64,000 bases of DNA from Escherichia coli. GTDB lineage: Bacteria > Pseudomonadota > Gammaproteobacteria > Enterobacterales > Enterobacteriaceae. The notes below the pieces were generated by a model. It searched no databases, was not told the origin of the DNA, and worked only from the letters and a program-made list of their open reading frames with translations. The position numbers and the translations under genes are program-made. The first letter of the stretch is position 1; each line of letters opens with the position of its first letter. Of the stretch, positions 39,333 to 42,797 are shown in pieces. Location of the stretch: assembly GCF_022846255.1 (NCBI RefSeq), contig NZ_AP025682.1; one strand, given 5' to 3'.

Positions 39333-40217
39333 GGGATGAAGATGAGATGATTCGCAGGCCTGGGTAATAGTTGGAAAACAACGTCCGTTCCTGGCACAGA
39401 GCAGACCATCGGACTAAACTGAAGGTCCTCTCTGTGCGAGAAACGGAAGTTAGCAATTGTGATACAGACGTGGGGCATTACTCGCTTTACAGTGTGTTAA
39501 TCAATTGGAAACAGGTCAGAATTTATTGGGTGGAATGACACCTTTAAACTTCTTGCGCATCGCAAGGAATATCTCCACCAGACGGTAAGACAGTAGATTG
39601 CGCCACAAGTCCTCAGAATGCCCTTTGCTGGGTTAACCACACGTCGTAATCATCCTTCCAGTGCAGCGGATCAAGATCCGTAATGCTCATAGTCACGCGA
39701 TTTCAAATACAAGCCCAGTGGTGTTATCCGTGAGCTGGACAGTGCTTCCGGCAACATGACTGAGACAGACAAAAAATCAGTTAGTACAGCATTGACTCAG
39801 GTTGAGCAGGAGTTAAAACAAACTGGGCTGGAGCAGTAGAAGCCTGCAGTGAATTCCCTGAATCAGGCGATTAAGTTGGCTTAAGAGTCCGTGTATGCCA
39901 TGTGCCGCGAGATGTCGTGCTATACGTGAAAGTCAGCGATATATATCGTTTTGAAGATGATTTAGGTTACGGGAGTGTCTCTGGGTGATGTATTACTTCA
40001 TCGACATCGGCTACGCACGGGTTGCCGCGATGCAGCGGATGGAAGCTGTCTGGGAAAAGAAAGCTCCGCTTGCTAATATTAGTACATCCGATGAAAAATC
40101 GTGTGTGAAAGTTGCAGATTCGTAATATACTAATGAAGAATGGAGATGTATTTTATATAATAAAAACATCTAAGTAGAGCTTTTTATTTTAAATCCTTCA
40201 TTATTACTGGAGATTTT

Positions 40218-41996
40218 ATGGGTTTTTATAATGACGCACTGAGTAAAATATATAGTGAAGATGATGATTTCCTAATTATAGGATTAACAGGGAGGACGGG
40301 GTCAGGCTGTTCAACAGTTTCTAATATACTGTCATCAGAATCAAGTGAGATAAAGCATTCTCTATTTAACGGTGATTACCCTAAGTCGAATGAAGAAAGA
40401 AAAGAGCGGGTTCTATTTAAATATTTTTCCGTGTCATGGGTTCCATTTATAAAGATACAAGCAAGTTCCATACTGACATTGTGTTTATCAAAGGACTTTG
40501 ATGGTAAGCTGAATAAATTTATTCGGGAAGTGACGGAGTTAGGTAATGACCAAAGAATCCTAGAGTCAACAGTTAATGATCTTGAATCTATACTAAAAGA
40601 AATTAAAGCTAAAGATGAAAGCTCTGATCATGATATAGATGATAAGATAAAATTCATAAATGAATATCTAATAAAAGCGAATACACAAATTAAATCCATA
40701 TTTAAGAACAAGGCTGACTATATAAAACTATATCAAGCTATAGGTAATAATTATAGATCTAGTGGGATGTACCATGACAGTTCATTTAGTGATGATTTCC
40801 ATGGTTTTTTTCTTCCTAAAAAAATAAATGATATAATTCAAAGATTAAGAACCTTAGCAAAAGAAAAGAACACAAAAACTGGAGAAAAGAAACCTATTTA
40901 TATAGTTATTGATGCTATAAGAAATCCGTTCGAAGCAACATACTTCCAAGATAGATACTCATCATTTTATTTAATGGCTGTTTCTACAGAAGAGCATTAC
41001 AGGCATCAAAGGCTTAGAGAACAAGGTTTAACTGATGCTGAGATAAAAGATATTGATGCAAAAGAATACCGTAAATCATCTTTGGATGAGAAGTCATCAT
41101 ATATATATCAGAATATACAGTCTTGTTTAGAAATATCAGACATCTATGTTGAGAATCCGGAAGAGGAAAATGTTGTTTGTCGGTACTCAGGATTGGCTAA
41201 TCAATTAATTAAATTCACTTCATTAATGAAGCGTCCCGGTATAATAACTCCATCAAATGTTGAACGTTGCATGCAGATAGCATATACAGCTAAGTTGAAC
41301 TCTGGTTGTATATCCAGGCAGGTAGGCGCTGCAGTATCTGATAGTTCATTTTCAATTAAGTCTATTGGTTGGAATGATGTACCAAGTGGTCAAGTTCCTT
41401 GCTCTTTAAGGGATAGGTTTGATTTGTCTGAGGGGATTGATGATATTGCTTACTCTGAATTCGAAAAGAACGAAAATAGTTTCATTCGAAAAATAGATAG
41501 CACTAAGATTATTTTTTTAGATGTTAAAAATAAAGGAATGAGAGCTCCATTTTGTTTTAAAACAGAATGGAATAATATCCTTGATGATAAATACAAAGAA
41601 GATCTACGGGTCGAGCATAAGTTAAATGATGATGAGTTTGCTATTATTGACAAAATAAAGTCTAACGCTAATCAAGTTTTTACAAGATCACTTCATGCTG
41701 AAGAGAATGCTTTCTTACAAATATCTAAGTATGGTGGCGTTGGTATACAGAATGGTTTTTTGTTCACAACAGCAAGCCCTTGTGAATTATGTTCTAAAAA
41801 AGCGTATCAATTAGGGATCAAACAAATATATTACATAGATCCATACCCTGGTATAGCAATGAGGAATATTTTAAACGCAGGGAGCAATAAACCATTGCTT
41901 AAGCTTTTCAATGGTGCAATAGGTAAGGCATTCCATAATTTTTACACGCCAAGAATGGCTTATAAAGATGAGCTTTCAGCAAGATCTAGGGGGTGA
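40218..41996 (+). CDS. Two-domain P-loop NTPase / dCMP-cytidine deaminase protein (AvcD / kinase-Dcd-like anti-phage candidate)
   Basis: 592-aa ORF with GGAG Shine-Dalgarno. N-terminus has Walker-A-like GLTGRTGSGCST. C-terminus has HAEENA (about 41694) and PCELC (about 41778) zinc-binding deaminase motifs. Strongly AT-rich, with about 0.8 kb non-coding on each side. Confidence 0.7.
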   Translation: MGFYNDALSKIYSEDDDFLIIGLTGRTGSGCSTVSNILSSESSEIKHSLFNGDYPKSNEERKERVLFKYFSVSWVPFIKIQASSILTLCLSKDFDGKLNKFIREVTELGNDQRILESTVNDLESILKEIKAKDESSDHDIDDKIKFINEYLIKANTQIKSIFKNKADYIKLYQAIGNNYRSSGMYHDSSFSDDFHGFFLPKKINDIIQRLRTLAKEKNTKTGEKKPIYIVIDAIRNPFEATYFQDRYSSFYLMAVSTEEHYRHQRLREQGLTDAEIKDIDAKEYRKSSLDEKSSYIYQNIQSCLEISDIYVENPEEENVVCRYSGLANQLIKFTSLMKRPGIITPSNVERCMQIAYTAKLNSGCISRQVGAAVSDSSFSIKSIGWNDVPSGQVPCSLRDRFDLSEGIDDIAYSEFEKNENSFIRKIDSTKIIFLDVKNKGMRAPFCFKTEWNNILDDKYKEDLRVEHKLNDDEFAIIDKIKSNANQVFTRSLHAEENAFLQISKYGGVGIQNGFLFTTASPCELCSKKAYQLGIKQIYYIDPYPGIAMRNILNAGSNKPLLKLFNGAIGKAFHNFYTPRMAYKDELSARSRG

Positions 41997-42797
41997 AAAT
42001 ATTGATACAGGTAAAGGCAACGAACCAGAAATGCTCGAGACTATTCTGGCTAAGTCTGCCGGGCGATAAGCACGAGTGCATATGCTGTTCCAAAAGTCTT
42101 CTATTCAATAAATTACGAAGTGCTAACTAACTGACCATGTACAATAAGAACAAATCGCCTTGAATTGCTCTTGATTGAATGGTGAAGAATTATGAGGGTG
42201 ATAGTCCTTACCACCCTCAATTAAAATTAAAGGTATTTACGTGAGAAATTTTTCTTAACCACACTACTAATAAAACTATTTAGTCCATGCCCATCCTGGG
42301 CTAGCGCTTTCATCTTAGAGACCGTTGAAGCACCCAGTTTTGTAGAATCGTAACGTATTTCCATCCATCTTTAAACTGTACTGTGATAACATCGGGAGTA
42401 ATCTCATAAAACACTATTCCCGAATTACCGCCTTAATTAGCATAAGTTGGCATTTTTAATTCTTATTAAATTATTGCAGCAAGTCGCTGCACTCTAGTCA
42501 TATGACCCCATGCTAAACCTAATTGTTGAGCTAAGTCATAATTTCGATTATTTGATGAACGTAAGTTATTTGACAGGCAGAATTAACCATACACAGTAAT
42601 ATCCGTTTCTGGCACATAGCAGTCCTATAGATAGTGGCATACAGTCATAGATGGTCGATTGGAGGAGGTGCAAATTCTCCCATACAAAAAATACGTAAAA
42701 TCAATAACAGCTGGAAATTATTTAATAATCAAATTATCGGAAGTTCACCAGCCAGCCGCAGTATTCTGCCACGACAAGTTGCTGCGGCTTTTTATGT

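Follow-up and report, generated by a model that had tools for sequence, protein, structure and literature searches.

We analyzed a 64,000-nt stretch of Escherichia coli DNA (contig NZ_AP025682.1, assembly GCF_022846255.1), called the window here. It carries an avcD-type gene that encodes an anti-phage dCTP/dCMP deaminase with a kinase-like N-terminal domain (N-domain). The N-domain has a cysteine, Cys31, at the position of the Walker A (P-loop) lysine. This cysteine is real and non-random. Across the relatives sampled, it is an invariant signature of the whole branch of the family that contains the window protein and the enzyme of E. coli AW1.7 (clade A) and not a peculiarity of this locus. 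A second branch, clade B, has other residues at this position, and no sampled clade of the AvcD family has the canonical Walker A Lys. The "kinase" half of AvcD enzymes is probably not a working kinase. We lean, without great firmness, toward a reading of the N-domain as a pseudokinase that would bind a phosphate-bearing ligand without phosphotransfer and that would be needed for deaminase activity and/or its control.

The P-loop and Its Cysteine Codon

The loop GLTGRTGSGCST is encoded at 40281-40316 by the codons GGA TTA ACA GGG AGG ACG GGG TCA GGC TGT TCA ACA, read as G22-L-T-G-R-T-G-S-G-C31-S-T33. A first-pass annotation, made from the letters alone, had marked the range 40281-40320 (this motif plus four extra bases) as a P-loop whose Lys is replaced by Cys. 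The translation and the profile alignment to CoaE and 3lw7 described below bear this out. The annotation also warned that a single-base difference would change the residue. For a change from Cys to Lys this is impossible, as the Lys codons AAA/AAG and the Cys codons TGT/TGC differ at all three positions.

Five other complete genomes of E. coli carry the same gene (99.6-99.7% identity). Three of these were fetched, and their motif DNA is identical; the other two match at the same level of identity. Two of the three fetched genomes encode identical proteins and one has I114V; the nucleotide differences are few, mostly synonymous, and outside the motif. In more distant E. coli homologs (down to 38% identity) the Cys31 codon is TGT or TGC amid fully diverged synonymous backgrounds. 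The open reading frame (ORF) of 592 aa is intact and has a ribosome-binding site, GGAG, 7 nt before its ATG. A sequencing or assembly error, which the first-pass annotation had named as a possible source of the Cys, or a misread Lys codon in a decaying pseudogene, is thus ruled out for practical purposes: Lys is three base changes away, identical motif DNA occurs in other genomes, the ORF is intact, and the Cys is clade-wide.

Fold of the N-domain and Placement of Cys31

A profile of 25 diverse N-domains was searched against PDB sequences. It puts Cys31 column-for-column on the Walker A Lys of the dephospho-CoA kinases 1uf9, 2grj, and 4i1u and of the Sulfolobus AdkA-like protein 3lw7. The profile 'iGLTGrtGSGCttva' is aligned with 'iGiTGniGSGKStVa' (1uf9), 'iGvTGkiGtGKStV' (2grj), 'iGLTGgiGSGKttva' (4i1u), and 'iTGmpGSGKSefa' (3lw7). 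In the same search, residues 224-319, with the motifs 'viDaiRnPlE' and 'R..RL', also align with 3lw7. The Walker B-like segment YIVIDAIRNPFE aligns with 'vfDGVRSLAE' of 3lw7 and with 'IIDQLKHPaE' of clade B. Matches to the N-domain include dephospho-CoA kinases, UMP/CMP/guanylate/adenylate kinases, and other small kinases.

An alignment-based AlphaFold model of the N-domain (residues 1-341, pLDDT 89) has a kinase-type alpha/beta fold in which strand beta1 (18-24) is followed by the glycine-rich loop and by helix alpha1, of which Cys31 is the first residue. A large helical insertion of ~140 residues (about 82-221) stands where nucleoside monophosphate (NMP) kinases have their NMP-binding module. 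By these alignments, the motif is a true Walker A homolog with K replaced by C.

Conservation Within Clade A

Cys31 is present in 120/120 of the nearest 90%-identity clusters (47-97% identity), including two that were missed by a strict regular expression and have S or D at G25. Searched by the N-domain alone, 742 representatives of 50%-identity clusters matched at E <= 0.001; among the best 150, with identities as low as 28%, the Cys is found in all sequences that contain the loop. We also sampled 80 species genomes chosen solely via the deaminase-domain peptides NSGC[IL]SRQV and [TS]R[AS]LH[AG]EE[NK]. As the P-loop played no part in its selection, this sample is a safeguard against circular reasoning. 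Its members come from Gamma- and Betaproteobacteria, Bacteroidota, Clostridia, Chlorobium, one cyanobacterium, and Desulfobacterota. The Cys is carried by 72/72 genomes with a readable loop; in the other eight, the loop is cut by contig ends (seven) or the segment is missing (one). No Lys occurs at position 31 in ~300 clade A sequences. A Cys confined to a small subclade is rejected by its invariance in the best 150 of the 742 representatives and in the 72 genomes. The homolog alignment proposed by the first-pass annotation, which asked if the Cys is conserved in a subclade, therefore had a divided outcome: the Cys is invariant, but in the whole of clade A, not a small subclade, and it is absent in clade B (L/I/V).

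For per-residue counts, 115 near-full-length diverse members were aligned. C31, G28, G30, and R180 are each kept in 115/115, and position 32 is always Ser or Thr (63 S/52 T). D232 is found in 113/115, E239 in 114/115, and R262 and L266 each in 112/115. Position 235 is R in 105 and K in 10, and position 26 is R in 97 and K in 10. The only other well-conserved Cys of the N-domain is C303 (109 C/6 S). Judging from these counts, the N-domain is under strong purifying selection. The first-pass suggestion of a degenerate domain, in the sense of decay, is contradicted by the complete retention of G28, G30, C31, R180, and S/T32 and by D232.

The only glycine-lacking clade A loop that we saw is TGRTCSGCTT of Flavisolibacter longurius (L057, ~nt 1960), in which G28 is replaced by Cys and C31 is kept.

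A Second Clade Without a Cysteine at the Lysine Position

Clade B was reached from weak tblastn matches in phage records (Burkholderia phage phiE094 gp47 and a faecal phage contig). It is made up mostly of Pseudomonas proteins named 'anti-phage dCTP deaminase' by NCBI, and PADLOC assigns it to the same family as clade A. It scores 460-505 bits with the NCBIfam model NF041025, and the model is therefore centered on clade B. The clade B N-domain is compact, without the helical insertion. Its loop has three forms: G[AP]VGCNL, GP[LV]GCGI, and GA[IV]GSGV[KR], the last defining a subgroup (B3).

Alignments of the clade A and clade B N-domains were compared by hhalign (98.7% probability), with no gap over the loop. 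The position of C31 is L/I/V in clade B (96/11/6 of 113), with no Lys in the 113, and the Cys/Ser of the clade B loop (102/11 of 113) aligns with S29 of clade A. The register is confirmed by the GSGV form. A gapped alignment of the GCNL Cys onto C31 was rejected, since hhalign is ungapped and the B3 sequence G-x-x-G-S-G-V-K is in register with G-R-T-G-S-G-C-S. A Cys universal in the whole family was likewise rejected, as clade B has L/I/V. R180, D232, R/K235, P237, E239, R262, and D308 are common to both clades; the P-loop has diverged.

Phage phiE094 (L095; genes gp47-gp49) is a temperate P2-like phage. Its clade B dCTP deaminase (NF041025 460 bits) is encoded directly downstream of two AAA-family ATPase genes and has the loop GPMGTPL, without Cys, Ser, or Lys.

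Comparison With Known Systems

The closest characterized relative considered here is in clade A. The anti-phage dCTP deaminase of E. coli AW1.7 (WP_045268677.1) is 38% identical to the window protein over the full length. It has the same two-domain architecture, the same variant loop (GLTGRTGSGCTT), and the same HAE...PCxxC site. The AW1.7 gene adjoins an integrase on a mobile element in a tRNA-Phe island, whereas the window gene is at the tail-fiber end of a prophage. The AW1.7 protein scores above the NF041025 cut-off (449 bits, against 370.7 for the window protein) and is without the ~25-aa deaminase-domain insertion found in the window protein. The AW1.7 enzyme was reportedly validated by experiment as an anti-phage dCTP deaminase by Tal et al. 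in 2022.

The AvcD (DcdV) of Vibrio cholerae resembles the window protein in having a kinase-like N-domain and a dCMP-deaminase-fold C-domain, in its NCBIfam/PADLOC family, and in its place on a mobile island. Its reported features include S52 in the 'Walker A', D162+Q163, and GCND (bioRxiv 10.1101/2021.03.31.437871). The B3 subgroup has the GCND motif and an I-D-Q-L-K Walker B. Since its reported features match this subgroup, V. cholerae AvcD most likely belongs to clade B3, a placement by reported features rather than by sequence alignment. Unlike the window protein with its Cys31, the B3 loop has Val at the Lys position and no Cys.

Both domains of V. cholerae AvcD are needed for toxicity. 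DcdV/AvcD no longer induces filamentation when it carries the Walker A change S52K or the Walker B change D162A+Q163A, although the protein is not lost (bioRxiv 10.1101/2021.03.31.437871). The kinase-like domain is thus required, because loop and Walker B mutants abolish toxicity without lowering the protein level. The same preprint assumes a canonical Walker A and proposes phosphotransfer, with lysates that funnel dCTP to dUMP. Its authors also report that they were unable to purify DcdV in active form, and they suspect that a cofactor or condition was missing. AvcD deaminates dCTP and dCMP and is held off by AvcI, a small RNA encoded just 5' of the gene in the same orientation, an arrangement like that of type III toxin-antitoxin systems. 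Phage shut-off of host transcription leads to AvcI decay and release of AvcD (PMC10511110). The AvcI RNA is demonstrated in V. cholerae, whereas none was recognized beside the window gene.

The UPF0200/AdkA-like (3lw7) and CoaE kinases have the catalytic Lys where the window protein has Cys. The window protein differs from them further in its extra ~140-residue helical insertion and its deaminase fusion. Another kinase-like domain joined to a deaminase is that of Schizosaccharomyces pombe Tad2 (PDB 7eey), which is catalytically dead and still required for its deaminase (PMC8217354). Tad2 is a eukaryotic tRNA adenosine deaminase with an N-domain closest to uridine-cytidine kinase, and the likeness is one of analogy only.

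Our literature searches found no mention of the Cys or of a missing Walker A Lys in AvcD and no AvcD structure; the loop is treated as a canonical Walker A. That the 'P-loop NTPase' domain of this family is without the catalytic Lys throughout the sampled clades is a modest addition of this analysis, a point not made in the literature searched. A canonical Walker A and phosphotransfer were taken for granted in the founding description; the missing Lys recasts the domain as a putative pseudokinase. AvcD-type dCTP deaminases are an established nucleotide-depletion defense of which the N-domain is an essential half, and the clade with the invariant Cys spans several phyla.

A Proposed Pseudokinase and Its Alternatives

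The Walker A Lys of P-loop enzymes stabilizes the beta and gamma phosphates during transfer. Its absence in all sampled clades argues against phosphotransfer. The Mg2+ ligands of such enzymes, the Walker A Ser/Thr and the Walker B Asp, are present in the window protein; the lysine is not. Because clade A keeps the glycine cradle, S/T32, D232, and kinase-type Arg residues, we infer that a phosphate-bearing ligand may still be bound. The N-domain would bind a dC nucleotide or another nucleotide effector without transferring phosphate, and it would be needed to activate or control the zinc-dependent deaminase. The deaminase would convert dCTP and dCMP to dU nucleotides after phage shut-off of host transcription, as in characterized relatives, and so starve phage DNA synthesis. 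In dCMP deaminases, the classical allosteric motif for dCTP/dTTP is G[YW]NG; the window protein has GWND instead, and a replacement sensor is therefore plausible. Among the options raised by the first-pass annotation, an unusual nucleotide-binding mode appears to be the best reading of the Cys.

Several points weigh against the pseudokinase. In clade B, the loop is hydrophobic at the position of the Lys, and G30 and S/T32 are missing as well; if both clades work alike, the P-loop may have no phosphate-binding role. The mutants were made in V. cholerae AvcD, which is clade B by its reported features. No AvcD-type chain was present among the PDB entries searched, and our literature searches found no binding or activity data for clade A. 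The window protein also scores below the curated NF041025 cut-off.

If the loop binds no ligand, Cys31 would serve for packing, as a small hydrophobic residue at the beginning of alpha1, and the N-domain would be a scaffold, an oligomerization surface, or a docking surface for AvcI RNA. We give this purely structural role appreciable but minority weight. It is consistent with the L/I/V found at the aligned position in 113/113 clade B proteins, where the loop has degenerated further to G[AP]VGCNL, and with the dead yet required kinase-like domain of Tad2. The AvcI-insensitive changes E123K, A126T, and K201R of V. cholerae AvcD are also located in its kinase-like domain. However, GSG, S/T32, and D232 are essentially invariant in clade A and make up the full Mg-phosphate cradle bar the Lys, and a packing site should tolerate Ala, Ser, or Val, none of which occurs among >300 diverse sequences. 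Genuine kinase or NTPase activity, with the Lys functionally replaced (e.g., by the charge of R26) and phosphotransfer on dC nucleotides, is quite improbable. S/T32, D232, and the LID-like arginines are kept, position 26 is R or K in 107/115, and the preprint proposes phosphotransfer and notes the funneling of dCTP to dUMP in lysates. However, host Dut explains the conversion of dUTP to dUMP in lysates, and no ATP requirement is reported in the literature searched. Clade B belongs to the same functional family and is without Lys, G30, and S/T32. It is general knowledge that P-loop enzymes deprived of the Walker A Lys transfer phosphoryl groups very poorly or not at all.

Cys31 could instead act through its thiol. 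Lying at a helix N-terminus by the anion hole, and possibly with a lowered pKa, it would serve as a redox or electrophile switch, a metal ligand, or a covalent nucleophile of the phospho-Cys type that gates the deaminase. The Cys is absolutely invariant with no conservative replacement, it is predicted to lie in the first turn of alpha1, and the nearly invariant basic residue R26 is in the same loop. The report of an unpurifiable active DcdV, with a suspected missing cofactor or condition, would fit such a role, and another control input is conceivable for some clade A loci without room for a 5' AvcI RNA. Nevertheless, we consider a reactive thiol, for which the evidence is indirect, rather unlikely. 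AvcI decay after transcription shut-off explains the activation of the characterized systems (PMC10511110), and clade B functions with L/I/V at the Cys31 position. Nor does the N-domain offer an invariant Cys or His as a partner: position 303 is Ser in 6/115 clade A proteins and Thr in clade B, so that a universal C31-C303 disulfide or metal pair is unlikely. The redox switch suggested by the first-pass annotation is neither supported nor excluded. It is a long shot that the Cys31 thiol gives clade A a second, RNA-independent route to infection sensing or triphosphate processing; if true, this route would fit those members of the clade without room for the RNA.

Family Membership and Annotation

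On sequence and profile matches, the window ORF is a divergent member of the known AvcD/anti-phage dCTP deaminase family. The PADLOC dCTPase model PDLC02373 matches residues 8-585 (E 5.3e-127, 423 bits), and NF041025 ('anti-phage dCTP deaminase') matches over the whole model, 1-437 (370.7 bits, E 1e-110). The only confident Pfam match is dCMP_cyt_deam_1 (PF00383) at residues 347-539; faint matches to the P-loop families CoaE, AAA_18, and ABC_tran fall at residues 19-73. Pfam and the sequence and structure matches give a kinase-like N-domain and a dCMP-deaminase-fold C-domain. The latter matches the dCMP deaminases of T4, S-TIM5, and S. mutans in sequence, and its best Foldseek matches are dCMP deaminases. 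The zinc/catalytic motif HAE...PCxxC is present and invariant in alignments of relatives. The full-length AlphaFold model has a pLDDT of 80 and a pTM of 0.78. These PADLOC, NF041025, Pfam, and fold matches confirm the earlier naming of the gene as an AvcD-type kinase-dCMP-deaminase fusion. The main features are listed in Table 1.

The protein is identical to RefSeq WP_060710333.1, annotated as 'hypothetical protein', and is found unchanged in E. coli SF-468 and MS15052. This label is due to the NF041025 score, which is below the curated equivalog cut-off of 400 bits. The low score is in turn due to divergence and insertions, with no domain missing: the ~25-aa deaminase insertion and extra N-domain residues are specific to a small subclade (P0001-P0004) that contains the window protein. 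Other clade A proteins also fall below 400 bits (P0005, 391; P0146, P0166, P0204, and P0250, 346-366). The cut-off misses divergent clade A members, and the family is therefore under-annotated and under-counted in E. coli.

More broadly, many full-length clade A proteins (including P0196) score 346-392 bits on NF041025 and are unnamed in RefSeq; the 400-bit cut-off is fitted to the compact clade of the Pseudomonas/Vibrio type. We also found a recurrent variant of ~790-830 aa, in many cases from Clostridia/Lachnospiraceae, with an extra ~250-300 residues after the deaminase domain that NCBIfam does not recognize (P0146, P0160, P0166, P0173, P0179, P0182, P0184, P0208, P0218, P0219, and others; loci L051, L067, L068, L072, and L079).

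Table 1. Features of the avcD-type gene and its upstream region; positions are those of the window.
Feature	Position	Strand	Basis or remark
Non-coding stretch from the prophage junction to avcD, 849 nt	39369..40217	+	Where an AvcI-type antitoxin RNA would be expected; none recognized
avcD-type gene, anti-phage dCTP/dCMP deaminase, 592 aa	40218..41996	+	PADLOC, NCBIfam, and Pfam matches
N-terminal nucleotide-kinase-fold domain, residues 1-341	40218..41240	+
Variant Walker A/P-loop GLTGRTGSGCST, residues 22-33	40281..40316	+	Aligns to CoaE and 3lw7 P-loops
TGT codon, Cys31, Walker A lysine position	40308..40310	+	Cys in 115/115 diverse clade A members
GNNYRSSG motif, residues 176-183, R180 invariant	40743..40766	+	R180 in 115/115; G, N, and R also kept in clade B
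Walker B-like strand and following motif YIVIDAIRNPFE, residues 228-239 (D232, R235, P237, E239)	40899..40934	+
LID-like RHQRL, residues 262-266	41001..41015	+	Aligned with 'RYKRM' of 3lw7
C-terminal zinc-dependent dCMP-deaminase-fold domain	41241..41993	+	PF00383, Foldseek, and dCMP deaminase sequence matches
Insertion of ~25 aa in the deaminase domain, residues 454-478	41577..41651	+	Homolog alignment; pLDDT 38-61
H493-A-E495	41694-41702	+	Invariant among relatives
P521-C522-E-L-C525 (PCxxC)	41778-41792	+	Invariant among relatives

Genomic Setting and the Search for AvcI

Positions 1-39332 of the window are E. coli chromosome, with genes for an MFS transporter, a hydrolase, and a LysR regulator directly upstream that match thousands of E. 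coli genomes. The junction of chromosome and prophage is at about 39370, and avcD lies between this junction and the tail-fiber genes of a lambdoid prophage. It is the core of a low-GC island (~40100-42700), with a GC content of 32.9% in the ORF vs. 52.1% in the window. Because of this island and its place at the prophage end, we regard avcD as prophage cargo (a 'moron' gene) adjoining the attachment end. The same avcD cassette is found in prophages at other chromosomal contexts. The subclade of the window gene occurs in only 5/5426 complete E. coli genomes, and distant blastn finds family members in 43.

No AvcI-type RNA was recognized in the 849 nt upstream of avcD by promoter/terminator scan, homolog alignment, or Rfam, whose search of this stretch returned nothing relevant. 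Only ~150 AT-rich nt of the upstream DNA are common to a 90%-identical homolog, and nothing is common to the 71% and 59% homologs. AvcI sequences are not conserved between the characterized systems, so the lack of upstream conservation is weak as a test.

Some other loci are tightly packed. The gene of the 71%-identity homolog P0003 (4001-5788 in L008/L009/L010) sits between spoT-rpoZ-gmk and glyS-glyQ, with flanks of 60 nt upstream and 82 nt downstream that leave no room for a separate AvcI RNA of 150-280 nt. The E. coli LF82 homolog (L005), inside an integrative and conjugative element, follows a small 132-aa 'hypothetical' ORF after a gap of 58 nt.

A very stable hairpin (39379-39452) lies exactly at the left edge of the DNA common to other prophages. 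Folding of 39365-39465 gave a minimum free energy of -42.6 kcal/mol (z = -7.3 vs. shuffles), and the hairpin produced spurious Rfam matches to miRNA precursors on both strands. Located just behind the LysR gene, it may be a terminator-like element or one associated with an att site. Downstream of avcD, ~800 nt of low-GC DNA (41997-42797) contain no ORF of note. The first ~600 nt of it (42012-42620) have ~92%-identical counterparts in ~60 other E. coli prophages without this avcD; these counterparts carry two small hypothetical ORFs and lie close to hokD in a Rac/Qin-like region (L094). Thus, 42012-42620 looks like a mosaic prophage fragment.

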